A DNA stretch of 64,000 bases. Source: Gammaproteobacteria bacterium (GTDB taxonomy: Bacteria > Pseudomonadota > Gammaproteobacteria > JAADJB01). The stretch is from contig JAADJB010000008.1 in assembly GCA_013151035.1 (NCBI GenBank), positions 11,466-75,465 of the forward strand. The letters run 5' to 3'. Positions 9,801-60,568 of the stretch are shown piece by piece; position 1 is the stretch's first letter, and each line of letters opens with the position of its first letter. A program made the position numbers and the translations under genes. The notes beneath the pieces were generated by a model. That model made no database searches. It saw only the letters and a list, made by a program, of their open reading frames with translations, and was not told the origin of the DNA.

Positions 9801-12212
9801 GGGTTTAGTGTGGCCTTGAAGGAAGACGGCACGGTGTGGTCATGGGGCAGTAATGGCTATGGTCGATTAGGGGATGGCACAACCAATGATTCCTCAGTGC
9901 CGGTACAAGTGTCGTCATTGAGTGATGTGTCCGATATATCCGCTGGTCGTTATCACGTGCTTGCCTTGATGTCTGATGGCAGCGTCCAGTCCTGGGGCAG
10001 AAACAGTGATGGTCAGCTGGGTGATGGGTCGAATACACATCGACATACACCGGTACAGGTGGGTGGTTTAAGTGGTGTTATTGCTATTGCAGCGGGTGGT
10101 TATCATTCATTTGCGCTGCGGAATGATGGTACCGTCTGGGCCTGGGGTCGAAACACTAATGGCCAACTGGGTGATAATAGTTTTGTGGATAGCGCTGTGC
10201 CAGTGCAAGTATCCGGGCTCAGTGCTATCACTGCTATTGCGGGTGGTGGTTATCATGGTTTTGCCCTGAAGGATGATGATAGTCTCTGGGTGTGGGGTCG
10301 AAATGATAGGGGGCAGGTGGGTAATGGTTCTCTATCGGATTTGGCTACACCCGTTTCTATCTTGACGAATGTGGCTGATTTTTCTGCTGGGGATTATCAT
10401 TCACTGGCAATCAGGAATGATGGCACGTTATGGTCCTGGGGTTGGAATGATAATGGACAGCTGGGTAATGGTGATACGTTCAATTCTTCCACACCGGTTC
10501 AGATGCAAAACGCGGGTAATGTCATTGCTATTGCCGCGGGTTATTATCATTCCATGATGTTGCGTACTGATGGAACAGTCGCTACATGGGGTTATGATAA
10601 TAATGGGCAATTGGGTACTGGTCGCTCATTGATCTCCACAGTGCCTTTGCGTGTGGCTGATGGTGTGTCGTTGCATGCCTGGGAAGATGTCAGCGCGACC
10701 ACTATTGATGTATTGGGTTATTTTACCGATGCCGATGGTGATCTACCTTCTGTTATTTCAGTCGATGCTAATAGTGCAGAGGGTGGCAGCGTTATTGATA
10801 ATAACGATGGTAGCTTTAACTATACACCTGCGCCTGGTTTTAACGGGATTGATTTCTTTGCTTATACGGTGTCGGATGGGGTTGAATCAGTATCGGTAAC
10901 AGTGACGGTTAATGTGGGTTCGGTTAATGACAGGCCGTTAGCTGTTGATGACAGTTATACCTTTTCCATTGGTGATACAGCGCTTATGGTGGTCGCCAAT
11001 AGCGGTGTCCTGTCGAATGATAGTGATAGTGATTTCGATGCCATGACAGTAATGGTTGATACCTTGCCTGCCAATGGCACACTGGTGCTTAACATTGATG
11101 GTAGCTTTGTTTATACCCCTACCGGCGCACTGACGACCGATAGCTTTACCTATATGGTCAGTGATGGTCAGGGTGGCGTTGATACAGGGCTAGTTAGTAT
11201 TTCGGCAGACTGGATTACCTCTATCCAGTATTTCAATTTCTCGGACCTGTCGGCCTTTACTCTTAATGGTCAGGCATCCACCTTGAATCCGGTTGCGGGT
11301 GAGTCGGTTCTACGTTTGACAGCAACGGGTATTGGAGGCGGGGGCAGTGTATTCCTTAACCAGACTATTCCGCTACAGGATAATAGTGGCTTTAATGCCT
11401 CATTCAGTAGTTTCTTCAAATTCCGTATCAGTAATCCGGCAGGTATCTCTGACAGTGATGGACAGGGTGCCGATGGTCTGGTATTTGTCGTGCAGACGGC
11501 GGCAGATAGTGTCGGTGGTTTAGGCGGAGGTATAGGCTATTCGGGTATTAATAATAGTGTTGGTGTTGAGATTGATACCTACAATAATGGCGGTGGGGAT
11601 GGCAATAGTGGTAACCACGTTGGTATTAACACCAATGGTAATCTGTCCTCCATTGCATTGGCACCGTATCCTGATCGTTTCAATGACGGTGATACGTTCT
11701 TTGCCTGGGTGGATTATCAGGGCTCCAGCCAGAATCTGGAGGTGCGTATTTCAGCCGATGGGGTGCGTCCTGCGCTGGCGATGGTTTCAGCAACGATTGA
11801 TCTGGTAACAACCCTCGGTGTCTCTGATGCCTATATTGGTTTTACCTCAGGCAGTGCAGCGGCTACTAATAATCATGACATTCTGGCTTGGGAGTTTGTT
11901 AATGCCTACGCACCGATACAGGCTATGGGTACGGCACCGGTTGCCGTTGATGATGCCGAGGTAACGGGTCAAGATATTATTCTCGTTACCGGGAATGTCT
12001 TGTTGAATGACACGGATGTTGATGATGATGTGCTTAGTGTCAGTAATTACCAGACGACAAGTGCGCAGGGTGGGACTGTTGTTGATAATGGTGATGGAAC
12101 CTTTGCTTATATGCCTCCACCAGGCTTTTTGGGTGTTGATAATTTCGAATATACCGTGACAGATGACTTTGGTGGTTTTGATGTGGGTGTCGTTGGTATC
12201 AATGTGATGTAG
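6837..12212 (+). CDS. giant surface lipoprotein: TSP3-like Ca-binding repeats, VNDAP cadherin-like modules, 14 RCC1 blades, C-terminal L-type (legume-like) lectin domain
   Basis: Lipobox LLSGC. DxDxDGxxDxxD TSP3-like motifs at aa 240-265. VNDAPV / VNDRPL cadherin-like signatures. Fourteen W(S/A)WGxNxxGQLGxG RCC1 repeats, enough for two 7-blade propellers. The C-terminus (GADGLVFVVQ..VGVEIDTYNN..GNHVGINTNG..AWVDYQ) is a ConA-like lectin fold. Confidence 0.8.
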   Translation: MSRFLLQKATPKAFIALLLVFLLSLLSGCGGGSASSNGNNASVTINIGSSQNVVSVNSGQWLLNQIITQAYAASLLTEYSYLSRITLEIWEGDNNITGQINERYNKGTFGALVAAEGNDALLLLDTSTRISVPADVALRYVVKAFQTVDGELVRFFQTEASYTAGLDSADFSGNLNMSLRVNINDSMIQQMDTPSLPCVDEDIDPITNAVVGDGICDTYENLFVVIDTRTGSVTEGQYIPDVDLDGIPNGIDTDSDGDGVDDANEDASQNSNNGYPNFVHTNNNPTSTRAEITLAQGATQTFSPDVDDDDEGDTFTVISVIQPLLGAVSIVGGALHYEAPRDQSGDTQFSYTVVDYAAQTPISGIALIHITAATPPNSAPDVYSLASLETNEDTAISNIDVVSETDAQDPDGDNISVTAFDTVSNWGGVVTQNLDGTLNYTPAANYNGSDSFAFTISDDFGGSIAGVFGFDVLAVNDAPVISGAPVITVEENSTYSFMPTANDVDAGDILVFSLTNQPAWASFNTITGELSGIPARDDAGVTLNIVITVTDNEGLTDSLPAFDLTVTTNNVPPVYQSQIYEHFSGGENHTLALRSDGTVWAWGGNNYGQLGNGDFGGGSTPVQALGLSNIIDLAAGDFHSVALRSDRTVWLWGHNNNGQLGKDSAEHESSIPSQLVGLTAVDAVAAGRQYTVALKTDGTVWSWGRNSYGQLGNDSTTSTEIPQQAVGLSNIIAISAGRYHALALKGDGTVWAWGRNNYGQLGDGSDTQRTIPVQVSGLTGVVSIASGGSHNIAMKSDGTLWLWGWNLYGQLGDGTMTDSAIPVQIAGLTGVDSMAAGRYHTLVSRSDGTVWSWGRNLEGQLGGNTTSGSTSPVLMTSLSDITAVSAGYKHSLARASDNTLWAWGRNGYGQLGDGADLVLTTPRTMSEIRSVLAITAGRKHSAAILDDGRVWSWGDGDDGELGNAATVDVSVPVPVAGLKSVRQVTLGIGFSVALKEDGTVWSWGSNGYGRLGDGTTNDSSVPVQVSSLSDVSDISAGRYHVLALMSDGSVQSWGRNSDGQLGDGSNTHRHTPVQVGGLSGVIAIAAGGYHSFALRNDGTVWAWGRNTNGQLGDNSFVDSAVPVQVSGLSAITAIAGGGYHGFALKDDDSLWVWGRNDRGQVGNGSLSDLATPVSILTNVADFSAGDYHSLAIRNDGTLWSWGWNDNGQLGNGDTFNSSTPVQMQNAGNVIAIAAGYYHSMMLRTDGTVATWGYDNNGQLGTGRSLISTVPLRVADGVSLHAWEDVSATTIDVLGYFTDADGDLPSVISVDANSAEGGSVIDNNDGSFNYTPAPGFNGIDFFAYTVSDGVESVSVTVTVNVGSVNDRPLAVDDSYTFSIGDTALMVVANSGVLSNDSDSDFDAMTVMVDTLPANGTLVLNIDGSFVYTPTGALTTDSFTYMVSDGQGGVDTGLVSISADWITSIQYFNFSDLSAFTLNGQASTLNPVAGESVLRLTATGIGGGGSVFLNQTIPLQDNSGFNASFSSFFKFRISNPAGISDSDGQGADGLVFVVQTAADSVGGLGGGIGYSGINNSVGVEIDTYNNGGGDGNSGNHVGINTNGNLSSIALAPYPDRFNDGDTFFAWVDYQGSSQNLEVRISADGVRPALAMVSATIDLVTTLGVSDAYIGFTSGSAAATNNHDILAWEFVNAYAPIQAMGTAPVAVDDAEVTGQDIILVTGNVLLNDTDVDDDVLSVSNYQTTSAQGGTVVDNGDGTFAYMPPPGFLGVDNFEYTVTDDFGGFDVGVVGINVM

Positions 12213-47955: not shown

Positions 47956-48798
47956 ATGAAGAAACATCGAAGTAGGCAGGCAGTATCAAAAATCAGATTG
48001 TGGATTGAACGCTTGATCCAGGTGTTGCTGGGAGGCCCCGGCAGTCGTGAAAGTCTGTTATCGATACTGCGTAGCGCACACCATAAAGATTTGTTTGATG
48101 CCGATGCATTAGCCATGATCGAAGGCGTATTGCAGGTATCCGAGATGCAGGTGCGGGATATTATGATTCCCCGATCACAGATGATTGTGGTTTTGCGTGA
48201 TGATGACATCAAGGAGTCTTTGCCACAGATTATTGAATCAGGTCATTCACGTTTTCCAGTGATAGGGGATAGTCGTGACAAGGTGGTGGGAATTTTACTG
48301 GCGAAAGATCTGTTACATGAATATGCAGAGAACGAGACCCGTTTTGATATGCATGATGTTTTGCGTCCTGCTGTTTTTGTACCCGAGAGTAAACGCCTGA
48401 ATGTGTTGTTGAAAGAATTCAGGGTGAGTCGGAACCATATCGCTATTGTGGTGGATGAGTATGGTGGTGTTGCTGGCATGGTGACGATTGAAGATGTGCT
48501 GGAGCAGATTGTTGGTGAGATCGAGGATGAGCATGATGTTGAAGATGTGAACTCAATCTTCAAACATAGTGATAGCAATTACACGCTGAAGGCATTAACC
48601 ACGATTGAAGATTTTAATGCCTATTTCGAGACCGATTTTGTCGATGATGAGTACGACACCATTGCCGGTATGATGATGCGAGAGCTGGGTTGCCTACCTA
48701 AGCGTGGGGATACCGTGACTAAAGGCAAGTATAGCTTTAAGGTGTTACGTGCTGATAATCGTAGAGTGCATGTGGTGCGGTTGACGTTGGGGGTTTGA
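47956..48798 (+). CDS. corC: CBS-domain Mg/Co efflux-associated protein CorC (YbeX)
   Basis: Two CBS domains plus a C-terminal CorC_HlyC domain. Conserved operon position after ybeY. Confidence 0.88.
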   Translation: MKKHRSRQAVSKIRLWIERLIQVLLGGPGSRESLLSILRSAHHKDLFDADALAMIEGVLQVSEMQVRDIMIPRSQMIVVLRDDDIKESLPQIIESGHSRFPVIGDSRDKVVGILLAKDLLHEYAENETRFDMHDVLRPAVFVPESKRLNVLLKEFRVSRNHIAIVVDEYGGVAGMVTIEDVLEQIVGEIEDEHDVEDVNSIFKHSDSNYTLKALTTIEDFNAYFETDFVDDEYDTIAGMMMRELGCLPKRGDTVTKGKYSFKVLRADNRRVHVVRLTLGV

Positions 48799-48987
48799 GT
48801 ATGCGACTGGAAAGACAAGAGATAACGATGACGAGCTCTCAAAATACTTGCTCTATCTGTGGTGAAGGATCTTTGTGCCTACCAAGGGTGGGTATATGAT
48901 GTAGCATGTTTGAATAGCAGATATAAATGCAGGATGAATTAGAGGAAGTATGATATTTGGTTATGTGACTGTTAGTATTAAAAAATT

Positions 48988-49410
48988 ATGATGAAAAATT
49001 GTTTAAACTGTCATTTCTTATGCGATTCATACCGTGAAGAAAATTCAGGGTGTGAATTAAAATTTTCTTTGAAGCAAGAATTGCGTGAATCACTAAAAAA
49101 CAATCCAGTAGGTTATGATAGAGGATGGCATACATTACAATGTCACATGGGAGTATGGGACGAAGGAGTCTCTCCTGTAGCTAAAGGTGAAGATACGATA
49201 CTTTTTTCCCAAGATCGAGGCTATAGTTGTTTTTTTATTCCATATCGTAAATCTATGCTTTTTCCGGCTGCAATTGAAATTCAAAAACGAGAAGAAGAAA
49301 ATAGGTGGCTCAAAAGAACCAGTACTTATACAGTAATAGGTTTATGGTTAGCGGGTATAGGGTTGATACTCAATGCTCTCGTCGCAATATACCAGGCAAT
49401 AAAATGCTAA
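48988..49410 (+). CDS. hypothetical Cys-rich protein with C-terminal TM anchor (140 aa)
   Basis: N-terminal CLNCHFLCD...GCE..LQCH possible metal-binding Cys/His cluster. C-terminal hydrophobic helix. AT-rich. Confidence 0.4.
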   Translation: MMKNCLNCHFLCDSYREENSGCELKFSLKQELRESLKNNPVGYDRGWHTLQCHMGVWDEGVSPVAKGEDTILFSQDRGYSCFFIPYRKSMLFPAAIEIQKREEENRWLKRTSTYTVIGLWLAGIGLILNALVAIYQAIKC

Positions 49411-49519
49411 CAAGAAGTTCCAGGCGGACAATTGACATCGAGGTTCGTTTGGCTACGCCAAGCCTCCCTCTCTGTCAATTCCCGCTGAGCTAGTCGTTAG
49501 GCTACAAAAGGAAAATGAA

Positions 49520-49771
49520 ATGGGTGAAAAAATAGATTATCAAAATATATCTGAAGTCGCTTATACAGATAGCAAGGAAAAAGCAAATGCCTACTTACAA
49601 TTAAGTTGGGTAATGCTTAATATAGAAAGTACGCAATATTCCGAGCATGGCTGGAACACTTCATTTGTTTTTGGTTGGTTAAAAAATAATGGTGAAATAA
49701 AATATCCAGAAAAAAGTAAATGGGAAAAAAATATGGAAGAAGAAAAAGAAGATGAGTCCATACCATTTTAA
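49520..49771 (+). CDS. hypothetical small protein (83 aa)
   Basis: Intact ORF with RBS aaaggaaaatgaaatg. Lys/Glu-rich. No motif. Confidence 0.35.
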   Translation: MGEKIDYQNISEVAYTDSKEKANAYLQLSWVMLNIESTQYSEHGWNTSFVFGWLKNNGEIKYPEKSKWEKNMEEEKEDESIPF

Positions 49772-49893
49772 AATAATTCAAAGATTTAACAAGAAAAATC
49801 AACTTCGCTTGTTCCACACGCCAGTCGTGCAAAAAGTCACGTGCTGCCTATTAAAAATATTATGTTTCTAGTGGGTTTTGACGTAGGTAAATA

Positions 49894-50502
49894 ATGAATA
49901 ACGTAACTTCTGATTTTCAAATAGGTATTAGTTACACAACGGATATACCTGAAGAAATGGTCGCTGGTTTTGAATCAGCAATTGCGATCACAGGTTTAGA
50001 TATAAAATCAGAAGCTAGAGAAGTAGATTCATATGCAGGAGTTGAATGGCTGGTGCCTACAGCAGTAATTGTTTTTATCGGGAAATCATATTTCGACGGG
50101 TTTCTAAAGGAGATGGGGAAGGAACATTACCACCTTTTTAAAAAATATATAGTTACACTGTGGGAACACTTTTTTGGTCAAGATAGAGCCGTTAAATATA
50201 ATCGGGTAAGCACCAAAGGAAAAATATTGTCACTAGATAAATATTCTCCAATATTCTCAATAATGACGGACTTGCTGCCGGGTTACCGAATTAAATATTT
50301 ATTACAAGATGATATATCACAAGCAGAATACCAAAATGCGATCGAGGAATTCTTCTCATTTCTTGAAGAGCTTGATTTTGGGGTGCTAAATAAAAATATA
50401 AAAGGGCAACTTGAAAACGCAAGATCACTTGGTGGTATTATTCTTCTTACATATGAAGAAGGTGCGTTAAAAGTGCTAAATCCAGTATCAAGAAATGAGT
50501 AA
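49894..50502 (+). CDS. hypothetical protein (202 aa)
   Basis: Intact ORF in the AT-rich island. No recognisable motif. Confidence 0.4.
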   Translation: MNNVTSDFQIGISYTTDIPEEMVAGFESAIAITGLDIKSEAREVDSYAGVEWLVPTAVIVFIGKSYFDGFLKEMGKEHYHLFKKYIVTLWEHFFGQDRAVKYNRVSTKGKILSLDKYSPIFSIMTDLLPGYRIKYLLQDDISQAEYQNAIEEFFSFLEELDFGVLNKNIKGQLENARSLGGIILLTYEEGALKVLNPVSRNE

Positions 50503-50616
50503 GATAAAGAAGCATCAAAAATACGTGGATGCGATTGTTTTAGTAATCTTGAAAAGACAATGTCCAGGATGCCATGAAAAATATAACAGCCTGATAATAA
50601 TCTATAAAGGAATACA

Positions 50617-52803
50617 ATGAAGCTGACTGATAACGAGATCAGGGATATCAATCGTCATCTTGAGACGGGTAAGCCGTTGCCGGAGAAGTATCGGTTTTTG
50701 CTGTTCGAGGACAAGAAAGAAGTCGAGCTGGTGTGGAATGGCAAGAGTGGTGATGTCTGTAATGTGGTGTTACCGTTCCAGGTGATTGAGCAGGTGGATG
50801 AGCCTCGGGCGGAAGCGGTTGTTGAATTGCAATCGGATTTGTTTGATATACAGACAGGTCGGCAGGTTACTGGCTGGAACAACAAGTTAATCTGGGGTGA
50901 TAACAAGTTGATCTTGTCGTCCCTGAAAAATGGGCCGTTGCGAGAGGAGATTGAGGCGCAGGGTGGTATTAAGCTGATCTACATTGACCCACCGTTTGAT
51001 GTGGGGGCGGATTTCAGTATGGATATTGAGATCGGTGGTGAGACGCTGACCAAAAAACCCAATGTACTGGAGGAGATTGCCTATCGGGATACCTGGGGCA
51101 AGGGGGCGGATTCATTTATTAGTATGATCTATGAACGGCTAGTGTTGATGCGCGATCTATTGGCAGAGGATGGCAGTATCTATGTGCATTGTGATTGGCG
51201 GGTGAATAGTTATATTCGATTGGTCTTGGATGAGGTGTTTGGGAAGAAATATTTTAGGAATGAGGTTGTTTGGAAAAGGCAATCACCTAGTAGCAGTAAA
51301 GCAAGAGCAAAAAAATTCAGTGCGGATCACGATACAATTTTGGTTTTTTCTAAAAATGAAAGCCCATTATTTCATCCAATATATGGGGAATATCCAAAAG
51401 AAGAAATAGAAAAAAGATTTCGTCAATCTGATCAACGAGGAAGATACAAGGATGCCGAGTTAGCCACATATTCAAAAGAAACATTTGAAAGATTAAAGAA
51501 AGAAGGTAGATTGATTGTTACAAAAGGGGGGAAATATCGATATAAAATTTATCTTCGTGATATCAAAGGTGTATTGATTGATACTTTATGGATAAATATA
51601 CCACCAGTCAATTCTCAGGCAATAGAGTCTACTGGTTATGCAACCCAAAAACCCGAAGCTCTGTTAGAACGCATCATCAAAGCCTCCTCTAATGAAGGCG
51701 ACATCATTGCTGATTTCTTTTGTGGCTCTGGTACCACTGCCGCCGTTGCCGAAAAGCTGGGTCGCAAATGGATCGTCTCCGATCTCGGAAAATTCGCCAT
51801 CCATACCACCCGTAAGCGTATGATCGGCGTACAGCGTCAACTAAAGGCTGAGGACAAAAGCTGGCGCGCTTTCGAGATTCTTAATCTGGGTAAATATGAA
51901 CGCCAGCACTATATTGGCATTAATCCTGATCTGCGCGAAGAGGAAAAGCAACAACAACTGGAGGCCAAAGAGAAGGATTTCCTGAATCTTATCCTCCATG
52001 CCTATCGTGCTGAGGCAGTAAATCAGTTTAATAGCTTTCAGGGTAAGAAGGCAGGCAGACTGGTGGCAGTGGGGCCGGTTAATCTGCCGGTGACGCGTTT
52101 GTTTGTCGAAGAGGTTATTCTGGAGTGTCGACAGAAGCATATTACCAAGGTGGATATCCTGGGTTTTGAGTTTGAGATGGGGCTGTTTCCCAATATTCAG
52201 GAAGAGGCGAAGGGTAAGGGAATCGATCTTGCGATGAAATACATCCCACGTGATGTATTTGATAAGCGGGCAATCGAGAAGAACCAGGTGGTATTCCATG
52301 ATGTGTCGTTTATTGAGGTGAAGCCGCACCTGGGTAAGGGCAAGAATAAGCACCAGATTGCCATTGAACTAACTGATTTCTCAGTATTTTATTCCCAGGA
52401 TGCAGCAAGTGCCGATACCAGCCTGAAAAACAGGAAATCGAAGGTGATTGTGGATCAGGGTCTGGTGGTCAAGATCAGCAAGGATAAGGATGGTATTATC
52501 ACTCGTGAGGTCTTGACCAAGGTATGGACGGACTGGATTGATTACTGGTCGGTGGATTTTGATTTTGAATCCAAGCAAGAGATTCTTCGGGTCAGGAATG
52601 AGGAGAGTGGTGAGACCGAGGCAGTCTGGACGGGTGATTATGTGTTTGAGAATGAGTGGCAATCCTTCCGTACCAAAAAAGACCGCTCGCTGGAACTGAA
52701 AAGTGCGTTTATGGAGTGTATGCCGGGTCGTCGGAAGGTGGCTGTGAAGGTGGTGGATATCTTTGGTAATGATACGATGAAGATTATTGAGGTGACAATA
52801 TGA
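50617..52803 (+). CDS. mod: Type III restriction-modification Mod subunit (beta-class N6-adenine DNA methyltransferase)
   Basis: Characteristic Type III Mod N-terminus (..[32 protein letters not shown]). Motif IV DPPF (LIYIDPPFD) precedes motif I FCGSGTT, the beta-class order. The region between them is the expected target-recognition domain. Confidence 0.8.
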
Positions 52804-53696
52804 CAGCGCTAAAGACTCCTAAATTCTATCGACAGCGTTTTTTGTTGTTATTGTTGGAAATGGCAGGAGGTTGCTTGTCGAAAATGGATTTTCAGAAATT
52901 ACTATTTTTGTCACAAAAAGAAGCAGGGTTTTCGTATTACGATTTTGTTCCCTACCACTATGGCTGTTATTCTTTTCAGGCACAGTCTGATATTGAGTTG
53001 CTGGGATCATTGGGTTGGTTGGAGGAGAATTCAAAGAGTATTAATTTACTTGCGAAACCAGGTGATTGTTTAAAAAGTGGTGAGCTGGATGTGATTAATC
53101 AATTTACAAAACAATTTAAAGAATACCGTGGTCGAAAACTGGTTACTTATGTATATGAACGCTATCCTTATTATGCTACGCGTAGCAAGATTGCTACTGA
53201 GATACTGGATGAAATATCATACAGGAAGGTTAGTGCAGAAAGAAATAAGTTAATTGGTAAAGATAAAGTCATTTATACCATTGGTTATGAGGGGCTTTCG
53301 TTTGAGTCTTATGTTAATCAATTGCTTAAAAGTGATGTGCGCTTATTATGTGATGTTCGTAAAAATCCGTTAAGTCGGAAGTTTGGTTTTTCCAAGGGTG
53401 TCCTTAGCCGGCTACTGCCAAAATTGGGTGTTAATTATTTACACATACCTGATCTTGGAATACGGTCGGATATGCGTCAGGAATTAAATTCGGAAGAGGA
53501 TTACAAAAAACTTTTCAGGGCTTATGTGCGGACATTGCCTCAAAAGATGGGGAGTTTGCAATTACTGAAAAGTTTACTCAATGAGCATCAAAGAATTGCA
53601 CTGACCTGTTATGAAAAGGAACATCATTCTTGTCACCGTCACTGTGTTACTGACTATTTGGAGAATAAGAGTAATATCAGGGTGCGTCATATATGA
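52800..53696 (+). CDS. two-domain protein: N-terminal Panacea-like (DUF4065/SocA-like) domain fused to C-terminal DUF488
   Basis: ATGA overlap with mod. N-terminal [40 protein letters not shown] resembles the Panacea consensus (KLqKLlY...GPy). C-terminal [36 protein letters not shown] matches the DUF488 signature (TIGhs..DVR..P.S...GI.Y.h...LG). Confidence 0.5.
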
Positions 53697-54523
53697 GCAG
53701 GATGCGAAAAGTATTTATAACTGTTAAAACATACCCAACACTTTCAAAAAAATATGCCGAACTGGTTTGTACAGCAGGTATCCTTGATGATGGAAGTTGG
53801 GTTCGTATTTATCCATTGCCATTTAGAAAGCTGGATTATGAAAAAAGATACAAAAAATATCAATGGATGGAATTGCCGCTTATTAAAAATGAGAGTGATC
53901 CTCGTCCAGAAAGTTACAGGGTAATTGATATTGATCAAGTAAAAATAGTCGGTGATCCTGTAGATACAAAACAGGGATGGCTCGAACGAAAAAATATAGT
54001 CTTTGGCAAGAATAAGACTTATTTAGATTTGGATGATCTTATTGAGAAGGCTAGTAATAATGAGCTTTCAATGGCTGTTTTCAAGCCAACTAAAATACTG
54101 GATTTGGTGATAGAAGAAGTTGACCGTGAATGGAGTAGTGAAAGTTTGGATCTTCTTAAAGCCAAAGCTAAGCAATTATCCTTGTTTCAGACAGAAGAGG
54201 AGTTAAAAAAAGAATTTTTAATTGTTGATAAATTGCCGTACAAGTTTTCATATCGATTTGAGGATTGCAAGGGAAAGCAAAGTAAATTGATGATTGAAGA
54301 CTGGGAAATAGGCATGTTGTACTGGAATTGTTTGAAACAGACAGGAAATAATGAAAGTGAAGCACTAGAACTGGTGCGAAAAAAATATATCGATGAGTTT
54401 TCTAATAAGGATTTGTTTTTATTTTTGGGTACAACCAGGCAATTCCATGGTTGGGCTAAAAATCCGTTTGTAATTATCGGGGTATTTTACCCTCCGATTG
54501 ATAATCAGATTTCTTTTTTATAG
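53693..54523 (+). CDS. hypothetical protein (276 aa) translationally coupled between the DUF488 fusion gene and res
   Basis: ATGA overlap upstream. Ends 11 nt before the res RBS. No recognisable domain. Confidence 0.45.
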   Translation: MSRMRKVFITVKTYPTLSKKYAELVCTAGILDDGSWVRIYPLPFRKLDYEKRYKKYQWMELPLIKNESDPRPESYRVIDIDQVKIVGDPVDTKQGWLERKNIVFGKNKTYLDLDDLIEKASNNELSMAVFKPTKILDLVIEEVDREWSSESLDLLKAKAKQLSLFQTEEELKKEFLIVDKLPYKFSYRFEDCKGKQSKLMIEDWEIGMLYWNCLKQTGNNESEALELVRKKYIDEFSNKDLFLFLGTTRQFHGWAKNPFVIIGVFYPPIDNQISFL

Positions 54524-54534
54524 GGAGGTCAATA

Positions 54535-57219
54535 ATGGCTCTGCATCCTGATTTTCCGGATTCGCCCCATGTTATTCTTGAACCGGATATTCGCTGGTTT
54601 CCTGCTGATGAAGCCCTGCGTGAATCCTCTTATGAGAAATTATTACCACCACTGGTACATAAGTTACGCAGGAAGGTTCAGTTATGGCGTGAGACAGGTT
54701 ATGAGGGTGCGTCCCCTACTAGCATTCATCTTTTGAACTGGTGGTTTGAGCGTGAGCATCTAATGCCAAAGTCCGATGGTTCTATGTCCACGTTTCAGTA
54801 TTACTTTGCCCAACGCGAGGCAGTGGAAACGGTGGTTTATCTTTATGATGTGGTCAAGGTAAAGGATAAATATGATCTGATCCGGTTTGATTCATCCGGT
54901 GCGGTATCAGCGGGTATGTTTGATGAGGCATGGCGGCGCTTTGTAATCAAGATGGCTACAGGTTCGGGTAAGACCAAGGTAATGAGTTTGATCCTCGCAT
55001 GGAGTTATTTTCATAAGATGTATGAAGATGATTCTGAACTGGCGCGTAACTTTCTGTTGATTACTCCGAATATCATTGTGCTGGATCGTATTCGTACGGA
55101 TTTTGATGGCCTGCGTATCTTCTTCGAAGACCCTGTGCTGCCCGATAATGGTTATGAAGGTTACAACTGGCGTGATGATTTTCAACTGACCCTGCATATT
55201 CAGGATGAGGTCAATATTACCCGAAAGATTGGCAATATCTTCCTAACCAATATTCATCGGGTTTATTCAGGTAATGATATCGAACCATCGGCGGATGATG
55301 ACGATACCATGGATTACTTTTTAGGTAAGAGGCCGGTTGGAAAGACCACTGATTCAAAGGTTGATCTGGGGGATATTGTCAGGGATATTGATGAGCTGGT
55401 CGTGCTGAATGATGAGGCACATCATATCCATGACAGTCGTTTAGCCTGGTTTAAGTCAATTGAGGATATTCATCATCGTTTGCAGCATAAAGATCGTTCT
55501 CTTTCACTGCAAATTGATGTGACTGCAACACCCAAGCACAATAATGGGGCTATCTTTGTGCAGACAGTATCTGATTATCCCTTGGTTGAGGCCATTGCGC
55601 AGAATGTGGTGAAACACCCTGTGTTGCCTGATTCTGCCAGCCGTACTAAATTGTCTGAGCGACAAAGCTCGCGTTATACCGAGAAATACGCAGATTATTT
55701 GCATCTGGGGGTTGAGGAATGGCGTAAGGCATACGGTGAGCATAAAAAACTGGAGAAGAAGGCTATCCTCTTTGTGATGACAGATGACACCAAAAATTGT
55801 GATGATGTTGCTGAGTATCTTGAGACTACCTATCCTGAGCTAAAAGATGCAGTGCTGGTCATTCATACCAGGAATAATGGTGAGGTCAGCGAGGCTGCTA
55901 GTGGCAAGAAAAAAGAGGAGCTGGAACTATTACGCAAACAGTCCAATGCGATTGATAGCTGGGAGAGTCCCTACAAGGCTATCGTTTCCGTGCTGATGTT
56001 GAAAGAGGGTTGGGATGTCAGGAATGTCACCACCATTGTGGGTCTGCGTGCTTATGGAGCCAAAAGCAATATTCTGCCAGAGCAGACCTTGGGACGCGGG
56101 CTGCGCAGAATGTATCCCGGCAATGAGGTGGAAGAATATGTCAGTGTCGTCGGTACCGATGCCTTTATGGACTTTGTTGAGTCTATTCAGTCTGAAGGTG
56201 TGGAACTTGAGCATAAGGCTATGGGTGAGGGCACTAAACCAAAAACACCGATTATTGTTGAGGTGGATAATGAAAATACCAGTAAGGATATTGAACTGCT
56301 TGATATTGAGATTCCGGTATTAACAGCAAGAATCTATCGAGAGTACAAAAACCTTGAGGATCTGGATGTCAGTTGCTTTGACTACAAGAAGGTGAAATAT
56401 AGATCCTTTAGTGAAGAAGATATGCGAGAGATTGTGTTCAAGTATGTGACCAGTAATGAGATCAGTCATACGACCTTGCTGGATTCCTGTGTGGTGACGG
56501 ATTATCGCTCTGTTATTGGTTATTTTGCTCAAATTATCATGAAGGATTTACGCCTGGTCAGTGGTTATGATGCGTTATATGGAAGGGTGAAATCCTTTAT
56601 TCAGAATGACTTGTTCGAAACAGAGATTGATCTTGATAGTATGAACACCCTGCGTAATCTATCGGAGTTAGAGGCGAGCAAAACACTGGTTGAGACCTTT
56701 AAGAAGCAGATTAATGCGCTTACGGTTCGAGATAAAGGTGATGCGGAGATCAAGGATTATATCAAGTTAAGGAAGACCCGCCCATTTGTGGTTAAGGAAC
56801 AGGGCTACCTTATTCCTAACAAAAGTATCTTTAACAAGATTATCGGTGATAGTCATCTGGAGCTGCAATTTGCCGCCTTTCTTGAAGGTTGTGAAGATAT
56901 TATTTCTTACGTAAAAAACTATCTGGCTGTACATTTTCAGATTGATTACGTTAATGCCGATGGCAATATTTCAAATTATTATCCTGACTTTATTGTTAAG
57001 TGCTCTTCAAGCTCAGTAATTATTGTAGAAACCAAGGGGCTTGAGGATCTTGATGTACCCCTTAAGATGGAGCGATTACGCGAGTGGTGTGTCGATGTTA
57101 ACAAAGCACAATCGGTTATTCATTATGATTATGTATTTGTTGATGAGGAAGGTTTTAATCAATATCAGCCTAAAACCTTTCAGACATTGATGTCAGGTTT
57201 CAGGGGATATAAGGCTTAA
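54535..57219 (+). CDS. res: Type III restriction enzyme Res subunit (SF2 helicase plus C-terminal PD-(D/E)xK nuclease)
   Basis: RBS gggagg. Helicase motif I MATGSGKTKV, motif II LNDEAHHI, motif VI QTLGRGLRR. C-terminal nuclease motif YYPDF...IIVETKG. Confidence 0.8.
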   Translation: MALHPDFPDSPHVILEPDIRWFPADEALRESSYEKLLPPLVHKLRRKVQLWRETGYEGASPTSIHLLNWWFEREHLMPKSDGSMSTFQYYFAQREAVETVVYLYDVVKVKDKYDLIRFDSSGAVSAGMFDEAWRRFVIKMATGSGKTKVMSLILAWSYFHKMYEDDSELARNFLLITPNIIVLDRIRTDFDGLRIFFEDPVLPDNGYEGYNWRDDFQLTLHIQDEVNITRKIGNIFLTNIHRVYSGNDIEPSADDDDTMDYFLGKRPVGKTTDSKVDLGDIVRDIDELVVLNDEAHHIHDSRLAWFKSIEDIHHRLQHKDRSLSLQIDVTATPKHNNGAIFVQTVSDYPLVEAIAQNVVKHPVLPDSASRTKLSERQSSRYTEKYADYLHLGVEEWRKAYGEHKKLEKKAILFVMTDDTKNCDDVAEYLETTYPELKDAVLVIHTRNNGEVSEAASGKKKEELELLRKQSNAIDSWESPYKAIVSVLMLKEGWDVRNVTTIVGLRAYGAKSNILPEQTLGRGLRRMYPGNEVEEYVSVVGTDAFMDFVESIQSEGVELEHKAMGEGTKPKTPIIVEVDNENTSKDIELLDIEIPVLTARIYREYKNLEDLDVSCFDYKKVKYRSFSEEDMREIVFKYVTSNEISHTTLLDSCVVTDYRSVIGYFAQIIMKDLRLVSGYDALYGRVKSFIQNDLFETEIDLDSMNTLRNLSELEASKTLVETFKKQINALTVRDKGDAEIKDYIKLRKTRPFVVKEQGYLIPNKSIFNKIIGDSHLELQFAAFLEGCEDIISYVKNYLAVHFQIDYVNADGNISNYYPDFIVKCSSSSVIIVETKGLEDLDVPLKMERLREWCVDVNKAQSVIHYDYVFVDEEGFNQYQPKTFQTLMSGFRGYKA

Positions 57220-57285
57220 TATCGGTATTTTGTATTTATGTAGCAATATGCTACAATATAGGTCGTATTGTAGCGAGGTGTACTG

Positions 57286-57678
57286 ATGTCGACTCCACTC
57301 AGGGTAAATGACCGTCTTTTTAAGGATGCCGAGGCGGAGGGTTCTTTAATGAATCGCTCAACAGCCAAGCAGGTTGAGTTTTGGGCCGAGCTAGGCAGAC
57401 GTGTAGCTCCTTCGGTATCACCCGCAAATATGCTGGCATTGATGCAGGGGATTGCACAGGTGCATATTGAGATACCTGACTTACAGCCGGTAAATCCTGA
57501 TCATGTTTTCGATGTGGTTGATAAAGCCAGTGCATCGGGTTTACTGGGTCAGCAGATTACACAGGGTGGCTTGTATTATGAGGTGAGTAAAACCCAACCA
57601 GGGTTGCTGGATCAGGTTATGCCCGATGGGCAACGCCTTGCGGGACGTTTCAATAGTGGTTTATTTATCCCTGAATGA
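57286..57678 (+). CDS. ParD-like (PF11903-type) RHH antitoxin
   Basis: MSTPLRVNDRLFKDAEAEGSLMNRSTAKQVEFWAELGR N-terminus. ATGA overlap with the downstream zeta-like toxin. Confidence 0.6.
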   Translation: MSTPLRVNDRLFKDAEAEGSLMNRSTAKQVEFWAELGRRVAPSVSPANMLALMQGIAQVHIEIPDLQPVNPDHVFDVVDKASASGLLGQQITQGGLYYEVSKTQPGLLDQVMPDGQRLAGRFNSGLFIPE

Positions 57679-58259
57679 ATGTGGATAAACAGCTTTGGTT
57701 ATTAGCGGGTGGTAACGGAGCAGGTAAATCAACCTTCTACCAACAGTTTTTGGCAACAACGGAATTACCCTTTATCAATGCCGATATACTTGCCCGGCAA
57801 CTTGATGCTGAGAATAGCGAAGCGATTAGTTATAAGGCAGCAAGGCTAGCTGAAAAACTACGAACGGATTTATTACAATCAGGTGTCAGTTTTTGTTTTG
57901 AAACGGTTTTCTCTCATCCATCAAAGATTGATTTTTTAGCACAAGCAAAATCATTGGGCTATGAGATTATTTTGGTTTATATCCATCTACAAACAGATGA
58001 ATTGAACCAGGCGCGTGTTATGCAACGTGTGAAACAGGGTGGGCATAATGTGCCTATGGATAAGATTATTAGTCGTATCCCAAGAACAATGTCCTATGTT
58101 AGTGATGCATTGCCTCTGGTTAACCGGGCGGTATTTTATGATAATTCATTACACAGCCAGCCATTTTTATCCGTGGCATCGCTGTTTGCAGGGCAGTTGC
58201 AGAAGCATGTGAAGCCATTACCTGATTGGGCGGAGAAGATGTTGGTGAATTACATTTGA
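57675..58259 (+). CDS. zeta-toxin-like P-loop kinase (AAA/zeta family) toxin
   Basis: Walker A LLAGGNGAGKST and zeta/PezT-like fold length (194 aa). Paired with the upstream ParD-like gene. Confidence 0.7.
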   Translation: MNVDKQLWLLAGGNGAGKSTFYQQFLATTELPFINADILARQLDAENSEAISYKAARLAEKLRTDLLQSGVSFCFETVFSHPSKIDFLAQAKSLGYEIILVYIHLQTDELNQARVMQRVKQGGHNVPMDKIISRIPRTMSYVSDALPLVNRAVFYDNSLHSQPFLSVASLFAGQLQKHVKPLPDWAEKMLVNYI

Positions 58260-58933
58260 TTGCGGTTTTTTCTGATTCCAAACAGCCCGATTAAACCCGA
58301 GATCAAAAGCCAGGCGCTTGCGGGCAGGGGTACAATTGCTAAACCATATTGTATGTGATCAACTTCTATGTTGTTGACGCTCCCTCTATCCGAAATGAAT
58401 ATCTTTGATATACCGCCTGCATTGCTTACGCCGAGAAAGCGATCCTCAGCTGTCGTTCCATTAAAACTGTAATCACCTAAAGTAGCTGTCAAGACACCCA
58501 GAGAGGCTCCATTTTGATCAAATGCCTCAAAATCAACCAGGCTATTCGGTGTGCCATCGGTCCATACCAGGCCGGCTCGGGTTGGAAAACCACCAAGAAT
58601 ATTGGTGTCAAATGTAAAGGTCATACTCGTTGGGTCGTAAATACTGGTGGCATTGCCACCGTTACCGTTAATGACGCCATTGTCTATATCGACTGAATCA
58701 CCGGAAGGCCCTTTATAAATGATACCTTGATTAACGCTGAGCCCAGGGGTGTTCAGTTGCTGGTCTTCGAAGTCTTCCAGATAAAACCAGGAGAAAGTCT
58801 CTCCGGAAAAGGGGCTGTCACCTGAACTCAGATAGGGCGATGGCCCGAGTAATGCCGCTGATGTGACTGTGGACAAGATAAAAAGACAGAAACCTGTAAC
58901 GGTATTTATTAGGTGATGATATTTGCGTGTCAT
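58250..58933 (-). CDS. PEP-CTERM sorting-domain secreted protein
   Basis: Signal peptide. Gly/Asn-rich body. C-terminal VPLPASAWLLISGLIGLFGIRKNRNQM PEP-CTERM motif. Confidence 0.8.
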   Translation of the reverse strand: MTRKYHHLINTVTGFCLFILSTVTSAALLGPSPYLSSGDSPFSGETFSWFYLEDFEDQQLNTPGLSVNQGIIYKGPSGDSVDIDNGVINGNGGNATSIYDPTSMTFTFDTNILGGFPTRAGLVWTDGTPNSLVDFEAFDQNGASLGVLTATLGDYSFNGTTAEDRFLGVSNAGGISKIFISDRGSVNNIEVDHIQYGLAIVPLPASAWLLISGLIGLFGIRKNRNQM

Positions 58934-59020
58934 TGGGATATCCCCTTGATTATTCGTTTTTTATATGAGATCCATCTTCCAGTAAAAGTCTAGCTGATAT
59001 CGATTGTTTGTCAATTTCGC

Positions 59021-60568
59021 GTGGGTCTGTCATATAATTGTGTGATGGATATCCTTTTGTCTCAGCGTGAACCTGTAAAAAACCTGTTGGCACTGTTTAG
59101 CGGCCTGCTAATCCCATTGGCCTTTGCGCCTTATTCATACGGTCTGCTGGTGTTGCCTGCGCTGGCACTGTTTTTCTATCTGTTGGAGTCATGCTCGGCT
59201 CGGCAGGCTTTTGTGCGCGGTTGGTGTTTTGGTCTGGGTCTGTTTGGTGCCGGTCTGTACTGGGTTTATATCAGTATCCATTTTTATGGACATGTCGGTA
59301 TCTTTCTCAGTGTGGCAGTGACCTTTGCCATGGCGGCTCTGTTGGCATTATATCCGGCTATCTTTGCCTGGTTGGTGGTACGTTTCAAGCCGGTTATGCC
59401 CGGCCTTCGACTGGTACTGTTGATGCCGGCTGTCTGGTTATTAATGGAGTGGACTAAGGGCTGGTTGTTTACTGGTTTCCCCTGGTTGACCCTGGGTTAT
59501 ACGCAGATTGATACCGCGCTAGCGATGTATGCACCGATTGTCGGGGTCTATGGTCTGTCTCTTTTATTGGTGATGCAGGCAGGGGTGTTGACCTGGGTGC
59601 TGGTGGTGGGTCGTCGTGCTGTGTTAATGGGCGGGCTGATTTTCGCCTTGATTTGGCTGCCTGCCTTATTGTTCGATGAAGTGCAATGGACGCAGGCCTT
59701 GGGTGAACCGATAGCGGTGAGTCTGGTGCAGGGCAATGTTGATCAGAATGATAAATGGAATCCATCATTACGTGGGGAATTTATCAATCAATATCTTGAG
59801 ATGAGTCTGGGACATCTGGATAGTGACATTATCGTATGGCCAGAGACTGCCATCCCGGCCTTTTATCATCAGCTTGAATCTTCAGTGATTGCTGAACTGG
59901 ATCGTCTCGGCAAGAACTCTGGTACCAGTTTTCTAGTGGGTGTCCCGGTGCTGGATCAACAACGATGGGACTATTTTAATGCCGTTGTGGCACTGGGTCA
60001 GGGGCAAGGCACTTACTACAAAAATCATCTAGTGCCCTTTGGTGAATATCTACCTCTGCGGCAATGGCTTGGCACCTTATTACATTTTATGGATATCGAG
60101 ATGGGAGACTTCAGTCGGGGCGGGGTCTCACAACCATTGATTCAGGCCGCAGGTTTACCGGTGAGTGTGTCGATTTGTTACGAAGCGATCTTTGAAACGG
60201 AACGTCTGAGCGATCTGCCCGAGGCGGCCTTGTTAGTGAATGTGAGTAATGATGCCTGGTTTGCAGATTCATCTGCCCCGCATCAACATCTGGAGATGGT
60301 GCGTATGCGTGCGCTGGAGGCGGGACGTTGGGTGTTGCGTGCAACCAATACCGGGATTACGGCGATTATTGATGAACGGGGCAGGGTTGTAGCGCGTGCG
60401 CCACAGTTTGAGGTCTATGTGTTGGATGGACAGTTACAGCCGCGCAGTGGGGCAACCCCCTTTGTTATCTGGGGGAATATCCCTGTGTTGGTGTTGGTGG
60501 GGCTGATTTTGTTGGGTTGCGCGACAAGCCCACTGTTCAGGCTTTTCGGCATGAAGAAGGTTAGGTGA
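59021..60568 (+). CDS. lnt: apolipoprotein N-acyltransferase
   Basis: 515 aa. N-terminal multi-TM region plus a C-N hydrolase domain (E..K..C triad region ICYEAIF). Follows corC in gene order. Confidence 0.9.
   Translation: MGLSYNCVMDILLSQREPVKNLLALFSGLLIPLAFAPYSYGLLVLPALALFFYLLESCSARQAFVRGWCFGLGLFGAGLYWVYISIHFYGHVGIFLSVAVTFAMAALLALYPAIFAWLVVRFKPVMPGLRLVLLMPAVWLLMEWTKGWLFTGFPWLTLGYTQIDTALAMYAPIVGVYGLSLLLVMQAGVLTWVLVVGRRAVLMGGLIFALIWLPALLFDEVQWTQALGEPIAVSLVQGNVDQNDKWNPSLRGEFINQYLEMSLGHLDSDIIVWPETAIPAFYHQLESSVIAELDRLGKNSGTSFLVGVPVLDQQRWDYFNAVVALGQGQGTYYKNHLVPFGEYLPLRQWLGTLLHFMDIEMGDFSRGGVSQPLIQAAGLPVSVSICYEAIFETERLSDLPEAALLVNVSNDAWFADSSAPHQHLEMVRMRALEAGRWVLRATNTGITAIIDERGRVVARAPQFEVYVLDGQLQPRSGATPFVIWGNIPVLVLVGLILLGCATSPLFRLFGMKKVR

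Follow-up and report, generated by a model that had tools for sequence, protein, structure and literature searches.

Does a short AT-rich segment in the middle of a DNA methyltransferase gene record the exchange of a specificity domain between alleles, and can its low GC content say when such an exchange took place? The question is raised by mod, a gene in a stretch of 64,000 nucleotides (hereafter the window) of contig JAADJB010000008.1 from a Gammaproteobacteria bacterium, whose translation points to the modification subunit (Mod) of a Type III restriction-modification system working with a restriction subunit (Res) encoded downstream. A preliminary description of the window, made from the letters alone, had noted that mod is AT-richer between methyltransferase (MTase) motifs IV and I than in its flanks, had equated this segment with the target-recognition domain (TRD), and had suggested both that the domain was swapped in and that two homopolymer runs within it could switch the gene on and off. 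The analysis presented here indicates that the segment is very probably an exchangeable specificity cassette, while its low GC content proves to be a feature found across the protein family and the homopolymer runs are very probably ordinary codons. All positions below are those of the window.

An AT-rich block around the target-recognition domain

The argument rests on the following elements of mod, in which GC3 denotes GC content at third codon positions.

50617-52803, forward strand: mod, a 728-codon open reading frame (ORF; 728 aa), predicted beta-class N6-adenine DNA methyltransferase of a Type III restriction-modification system
50986-50997, forward strand: catalytic motif IV, DPPF (aa 124-127), read directly from the translation and invariant in 41 homologues
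51235-51636, forward strand: AT-rich hypervariable cassette (codons 207-340, ~400 bases), delimited by GC, GC3 and nucleotide identity
51391-51564, forward strand: TRD proper (~aa 259-316), by hidden Markov model alignment to the EcoP15I Mod chain 4zcf_A, where it aligns with TRD aa 263-384
51637-51738, forward strand: conserved backbone resumed, from the motif X region (aa 341-354) through motif I
51718-51738, forward strand: motif I, FCGSGTT (aa 368-374), read directly from the translation

Mod is matched by the Pfam family N6_N4_Mtase (aa 118-397, E 8e-47) and by the PADLOC model MTase_III (E 1.7e-111), and the sequence profile of its family aligns over profile positions 115-384 with EcoP15I Mod (4zcf_A, E 2.7e-23) and also matches 6k0w and 7dsu. 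The order of motifs is that of the beta class, with motif IV (DPPF) followed by the variable block, by motif X, in whose region lies YATQKPE (aa 341-347), and finally by motif I (FxGxG). Judged from its sequence, Mod is a Type III Mod subunit and a beta-class N6-adenine methyltransferase, and from membership in the Type III class hemi-methylation of an asymmetric site and ATP-dependent two-site cleavage are predicted for mod and res. The C-terminal 330 residues (aa 400-728, 51814-52800) are conserved across the family and gave neither a Pfam domain nor a sequence match to the EcoP15I Mod C-terminal domain; their interaction with Res is only a guess.

The compositional mosaic between motifs IV and I is borne out by two scans. 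A two-changepoint maximum-likelihood fit on the mod ORF placed a low-GC segment at 51205-51600 (GC 0.32 vs 0.478 elsewhere), and a scan of GC3 only placed it at codons 211-348 (log-likelihood ratio, LLR, 30.7), whereas none of 200 codon shuffles gave a value above 10.1. The cassette as delimited above has a GC of 0.33 and a GC3 of 0.21, as against 0.48 and 0.56 for the remainder of mod. At codon positions 1, 2 and 3, GC is 0.39, 0.34 and 0.23 in the segment 51205-51600, compared with 0.55, 0.32 and 0.60 in one flank and 0.56, 0.33 and 0.53 in the other; since GC2 is not lowered and the difference resides mostly in GC3, the change is mainly synonymous. The exact edges depend upon the estimator (51205-51600 by GC, 51247-51660 by GC3, and 51248 to 51633 or 51672 by nucleotide identity), and the limits proposed in the preliminary description (51240-51650) agree with the identity breakpoints to a few tens of bases, its positions for DPPF (about 50990) and FCGSGTT (about 51720) being likewise correct. 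Its depiction of the segment as rich in Lys, Glu and Ile holds for Lys (12.7% vs 8.8%) but not for Glu (8.2% vs 9.3%) or Ile (7.5% vs 8.1%), and Arg, Tyr, Ser and Pro are enriched as well.

Within the window such a composition is exceptional. Only 0.14% of 396-base windows are as AT-rich as the block, and all others lie within 49486-50047, part of the same genomic island. The 26 long ORFs of the window have a mean GC3 of 0.45 (sd 0.05, maximum 0.54), so that the block (0.21-0.22) falls far under their range and the mod flanks (0.59 and 0.54) stand at or above its top.

Position and fold both identify this block with the region reading the DNA target. The TRD was located by profile alignment to 4zcf_A using the published domain limits of EcoP15I Mod (MTase 62-262 and 390-516, TRD 263-384; PMC4490356). 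An earlier full-length model, built from 41 near-identical homologues, was unusable (predicted local distance difference test, pLDDT, 46) and was replaced by a model of aa 85-410 derived from a diverse alignment (pLDDT 92, predicted template modelling score 0.89), for which a Foldseek search returned EcoP15I Mod first (4zcf, E 1e-20), followed by other Type III Mods and beta-class enzymes. In the secondary structure of this model the TRD proper forms a compact helix-strand-strand-helix-strand-strand module. The AT-rich variable block (aa 207-340) extends beyond this module, holding also the preceding MTase strands with the motifs NEvvWKR and HDTIlvFSK and the linker up to motif X, and it includes the stretch aligned with that part of the EcoP15I MTase domain in which Asn232/Asn233 touch the DNA at the flipped base pair (PMC4490356). 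The suggested coincidence of block and TRD is thus upheld by the location of the TRD inside the block and by the best match of the model being EcoP15I Mod, and the evidence supports identifying the block as the region that gives a beta-class Type III Mod its specificity.

Sigma-70-like promoter matches were also observed in this part of the gene, four of them within or at the edge of the block (51189-51622), two on each strand. A role of the block as an intragenic promoter was considered and rejected, the 11 promoter-like matches in 50300-53000 (5.6 ± 2.5 expected) being probably what AT-rich DNA yields alone.

Separate histories of block and backbone

Mean protein identity of Mod to 40 homologues is 0.86 for aa 1-196, falls to 0.56 for aa 197-328 and returns to 0.81 for aa 329-728. 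The pattern is accentuated in homologues P0005, P0007 and P0010, for which the N-terminal flank is ~0.92-0.93 identical, the block 0.44-0.46 and the C-terminal flank 0.87. At the nucleotide level, identity to the family loci L081 and L083 is 0.95 at codons 187-206, drops to ~0.5 from codon 207 and recovers near codon 340, the maximum-likelihood low-identity segments being 51248-51672 and 51248-51633, respectively (LLR 60 and 52). Near-identity ends sharply at ...DEVFGK on the left and resumes at Y(A/P) on the right. The alignment to homologues called for in the preliminary description therefore reveals a collapse confined to ~51248 to 51633-51672, rather than one spread uniformly along the protein.

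The independence of the block from its surroundings is most evident in a comparison of 197 family sequences, comprising 119 database proteins, 77 genomic loci and the query. These carry 105 block alleles (at least 60% identity), and similarity of flanks and similarity of blocks are nearly uncorrelated (Spearman 0.22); among pairs with at least 90% flank identity, 78% have blocks less than 50% identical. At least eight other alleles, their blocks 25-39% identical to that of the window's Mod, occur on the backbones nearest to it (flank identity 0.89-0.92), and the window's own allele belongs to a 44-member cluster found mostly on backbones that are 76-81% identical. Compared with L085, the closest same-allele sequence, identical codons at conserved residues amount to 80 of 109 in the block and 250 of 485 in the flanks (Fisher p = 3e-5), an excess from which it follows that the cassette shares more recent ancestry than the arms. 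This decoupling supports, at the level of the family, the suggestion that the specificity domain is exchanged between alleles, and the block very probably constitutes an exchangeable specificity cassette of a Type III Mod, made up of the TRD proper, the MTase strands and loop that directly precede it, and the stretch joining it to motif X.

In a Mod dimer working as EcoP15I does, a short asymmetric site would be read by the TRD of one protomer and an adenine methylated by the other, while Res, having no DNA-reading domain of its own, would cut according to the recognition made by Mod. Replacement of the cassette would then re-target modification and restriction together, because Res follows Mod. 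The two nearly invariant cassette edges may act as homology arms when incoming DNA recombines with the gene, a role suggested by the sharpness of the identity breakpoints and fitting a dip in GC3 (see below) that runs ~20 codons into each conserved edge. The cassettes would form an AT-rich gene pool of their own, with a history and composition separate from those of the carrier backbones, and so make the gene look like a compositional mosaic. Neither a second mod copy nor a silent cassette was found in the 64-kb window, and no repeats resembling a shuffling substrate were found in or around mod; on these grounds in-place shuffling (as in a shufflon) and silent cassettes were ruled out, so that exchange must come from incoming DNA.

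Several points weigh against the exchange reading. Every comparison is one between different species whose synonymous sites are almost saturated, and yields neither direction nor date for any exchange at this locus. In the nearest full-length relative (P0002/L085) both the flanks (0.88) and the block (0.86) are close to those of the window's Mod, and this pair, taken alone, needs no recombination. That a different cassette implies a different target is inferred by analogy with EcoP15I and modA. Recent exchange within a species is recognized by flanks more than 90% nucleotide-identical between alleles; the best values here were ~0.80-0.82, with fourfold sites at 0.4-0.5, and no conspecific sequences were found. 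For this last reason exchange is shown at the family level and not as a recent event in this species.

How far the cassettes travel was explored by an exhaustive cassette search of cluster representatives, which brought up 1275 relatives, in methyltransferases of 290-670 aa. For the more remote methyltransferase families the identity of the cassette (41-47%) is about that of the backbone (34-45%), so that the comparison speaks neither for nor against transfer between non-orthologous families, and a word-indexed search with the cassette alone gave one uninformative match. Family members are mostly chromosomal, with full-length relatives of Mod in two plasmid records and none found in phage records. 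Mod and Res retain 55-87% protein identity in hosts that are only very distantly related, archaea among them (ANME-1, Methanofollis, Pacearchaeota), and even between the closest family sequences fourfold synonymous sites are near saturation; purifying selection on the mod/res backbone is unusually strong for a restriction system. A practical corollary is that the target sequence of the window's Mod can be inferred only from relatives sharing its cassette (the P0002/P0004 group), and not from the closest full-length relatives as such.

What the low GC content records

The low GC content had initially been taken as the mark of a swap. In part this stands, as the cassette does have its own compositional history, but the implication of a recent swap at this locus does not, since the contrast recurs throughout the family and survives saturation. 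Across 77 loci from many phyla, block GC3 averages 0.20 under flank GC3, with a difference greater than 0.1 in 61 of the 77. At the 63 loci with enough neighbouring genes for comparison, flank GC3 follows that of the neighbours (slope 1.11, r 0.85) with a +0.04 excess (p = 0.003), whereas block GC3, with a slope of 0.64, lies 0.17 under that of the neighbouring genes, a deficit present at 56 of the 63. Where the flanks are GC-rich (61 loci), GC3 stays at 0.71-0.74 outside the block in all conservation classes between 0.3 and 1.0 and is 0.46-0.47 inside it even at columns 70-90% conserved, and here the dip in GC3 reaches ~20 codons into each conserved arm. AT-richness is thus a property of the whole block, not of weakly conserved residues. 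Copies of the same allele tell a similar story, with GC3 values of 0.21 in the window's mod, 0.27 in L085 and 0.29 in L087 on backbones of 0.56, 0.64 and 0.71, respectively, and with fourfold-site identity in the block (0.38 for the window's mod vs L087, 0.25 for L085 vs L087) at saturation. Because the contrast survives synonymous saturation between same-allele copies, low GC cannot date an event, and a low-GC recognition domain is unreliable evidence for recent transfer.

Tentatively, and as one possibility among several, the AT-richness of the cassettes can be viewed as a steady state, reflecting a separate and persistently AT-rich pool of DNA that spans phyla and some archaea and keeps its composition at any host GC, at any residue conservation and after saturation. 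Such a state may arise if cassettes pass through an AT-rich mobile reservoir more quickly than their composition drifts to that of the host; another possible cause is that the GC-biased repair of the recombining arms does not reach the diverged cassettes, which would be shielded from it.

This second cause can also be put forward as an explanation in its own right. GC-biased repair accompanies homologous recombination, a concept of the literature on biased gene conversion in bacteria, and a block whose alleles are too diverged to pair would be deprived of it and decay to an AT-biased mutational equilibrium. The contrast indeed behaves as a step function at the level of the block, with its edges inside the conserved arms, and it appears at any host GC, as the shallow slope against neighbouring genes attests; flank GC3 is slightly higher than that of the neighbours, and in the window it exceeds that of every long host ORF. 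However, the excess of the flanks over their neighbours is small, and an AT-rich mobile reservoir accounts for the same pattern, leaving shielding a rather unlikely explanation. Were it true, biased gene conversion in prokaryotes could be studied with hypervariable cassettes of defence genes as a natural probe.

The customary reading of a low-GC recognition domain (PMC3311624) is recent import from a low-GC donor, the DNA having not yet drifted to the composition of its host. It is in keeping with the distance between block GC3 and the mean of the window's long ORFs, and with the greater share of codons identical to L085 in the cassette than in the flanks. It is nevertheless made doubtful by the copies of the same allele in L085 and L087, which are comparably low in GC3 on GC-richer backbones although their fourfold sites in the block are saturated, and by the occurrence of the contrast at 56 of 63 family loci. 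That no exchange occurred and the block became AT-rich through weak constraint (amino-acid composition, relaxed codon selection or site-by-site drift to AT) is very improbable, for although no part of the protein is less conserved than the block, which is also somewhat Lys-rich, GC2 does not fall and most of the drop is in GC3, GC3 is independent of column conservation both inside and outside the block, and similarity of flank and block is decoupled.

The two homopolymer runs within the block, which the preliminary description had placed at 51524-51529 (G6) and 51303-51309 (A7) and considered candidate slip-strand sites, are in fact located as follows.

51309-51315, forward strand: A7 run, GCA AAA AAA (Ala-Lys-Lys), incidental
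51526-51531, forward strand: G6 run, GGG GGG (Gly304-Gly305, in a hairpin turn of the TRD), incidental

They are the longest homopolymers in mod, yet both are shorter than the repeats by which phase-variable mod genes are recognized (mononucleotide runs of at least 9, at least 5 dinucleotide units, or at least 3 longer units; PMC5909438), and runs of this kind are common, with 7 of at least six G and 13 of at least seven A in the window. Among homologues with the same allele the Gly304-Gly305 codons read GGG GGT in L085 and GGT GGG in L087, Gly305 being nearly invariant in the family, and the A7 run is identical in L085 and interrupted in L087 (CGA AAA). No tandem repeats were found in or upstream of mod (Tandem Repeats Finder gave nothing relevant across 48800-57300), and there were no frameshifted homologues, those listed with the window's allele being full-length. 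Public metagenome contigs contained no length variant of the G tract, but no other copy of the allele was found there either, and the 14 matches of the pattern scan consisted of two other mod alleles without a G run and 12 chance matches in AT-rich DNA. An exact look-up of the window's own Mod gave no record. A phasevarion, in which slippage at these runs switches mod on and off, draws on the fact that the runs are in the reading frame, so that a change of a single base would truncate Mod, but given the lengths of the runs, the broken Gly-Gly codon pair, the abundance of similar runs, and the lack of tandem repeats, frameshifts or length variants in the sets just described, it can hardly be credited. 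Both runs are very probably plain coding sequence that takes no part in switching.

The mod-res locus and its place among known systems

The cassette-bearing gene is part of an island inserted in a conserved phoH-ybeY-corC-lnt-leuS neighbourhood, and its surroundings include the following.

48800-58950: island of ~10 kb, between corC (47956-48798) and lnt (59021-60568)
48988-50502: three small ORFs (140, 83 and 202 aa), GC 0.30-0.36, without Pfam or PADLOC match
52800-53696, forward strand: PDC-M19A, a DUF488 protein by Pfam (PADLOC E 1e-101), GC 0.37
53693-54523, forward strand: PDC-M19B, with no Pfam family (PADLOC E 9e-114), GC 0.34
54535-57219, forward strand: res (894 codons), SF2 helicase-like ATPase with a C-terminal PD-(D/E)xK nuclease, predicted to depend on Mod for site recognition
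57286-58259: ParD-like antitoxin and zeta-toxin pair, at the end of the island
58250-58933, opposite strand: VPLPA-CTERM protein, at the end of the island

Res is matched by Pfam ResIII and PADLOC REase_III (E 1.8e-18), and carries the motifs GSGKT at aa 143, DEAH at aa 293 and PD...ETK at aa 817-834. Its match to the NCBIfam type III endonuclease model is weak (24.5 bits, with a cut-off of 564), indicating a divergent Res lineage, and it also matches the NCBIfam BPTD_3080 endonuclease model below cut-off; a sequence search of the Protein Data Bank (PDB) gave no match. A res gene neighbours mod at 76 of the 87 family loci.

Between mod and res of the window lie the two overlapping AT-rich genes PDC-M19A and PDC-M19B (52800-54523), a PADLOC candidate defence pair; a literature search on DUF488 returned nothing relevant to function. 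The four-gene order mod/PDC-M19A/PDC-M19B/res recurs in L004 and in L081/L082. In L081, the closest backbone relative, the PDC-M19B homologue (11104-11932) is split into three small called ORFs of 62, 166 and 52 aa, so that the cargo appears to be decaying, and the island there is flanked by genes with gyrase B/topoisomerase IV-type domains, read as parE and parC. A survey of family loci L001-L087 yielded 52 with mod followed by res, in 20 of which the gap is 2-23 bases and in 32 of which it holds 0.3-4 kb of unrelated cargo. This cargo includes KilA-N/PDC-S22 (8 loci), Schlafen AlbA_2 with HATPase_c_4 (5), HepT/nucleotidyltransferase toxin-antitoxin pairs (3) and OLD/AAA_15 ATPases (3), as well as SIR2, Fic and YhcG nucleases. 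The mod-res junction thus behaves as a slot for other defence genes. Besides mod, the PDC-M19 pair and res, the island contains the three AT-rich orphan ORFs and the ParD-like/zeta toxin pair, and no tRNA genes were found in the 64-kb window. The segment 49486-50047, within the stretch of small ORFs, and the mod cassette are the most AT-rich DNA of the window.

Among characterized enzymes, EcoP15I (Mod2Res1; PDB 4ZCF) offers the closest comparison, being the best match of the window's Mod in both sequence profile and fold. Both systems have the beta-class order, with DPPF/Y before FxGxG, a TRD inserted between motifs VIII and X, and a Res partner with a helicase-like ATPase and a PD-(D/E)xK nuclease. 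They differ in the size of the TRD, 122 aa in EcoP15I and about half of that (~58 aa) here, in the 330-residue C-terminal region of the window's Mod, which has no match to the EcoP15I C-terminal domain, in the Res, which has no sequence-level match in the PDB, and in the separation of mod from res by two unrelated genes. In Helicobacter pylori, recognition domains move between non-orthologous restriction-modification genes within one genome (PMC3467074). There, as is proposed here, the recognition domain moves as a block of DNA by way of conserved flanking sequence, but no second mod or silent cassette was found in the window.

An exchangeable AT-rich recognition cassette is a well-known feature of Type III systems. 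The modA gene has conserved 5' and 3' ends and a variable central TRD of lower GC (PMC3311624; PMC5909438), and in modA12 the recognition domain has its own compositional history (PMC3311624). The modA, modB and modH genes of Neisseria, Haemophilus and Helicobacter share with the present family their conserved ends and hypervariable lower-GC centre, the many alleles per backbone, and the occurrence of the same domain in different contexts. In those genera, however, exchange is seen within species or between sister species, with flank nucleotide identity above 90% and a repeat tract giving phase variation, whereas the comparisons made here span phyla and archaea, with flanks ~80% nucleotide-identical, saturated synonymous sites and no repeat tract. 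With ~105 cassettes on one backbone, held by selection at 72-93% protein identity despite saturated synonymous sites, the family is a very clean example of what is probably modular re-targeting of a restriction system, and to what was described in those genera it adds an AT bias of the recognition cassette shown family-wide and independently of residue conservation.

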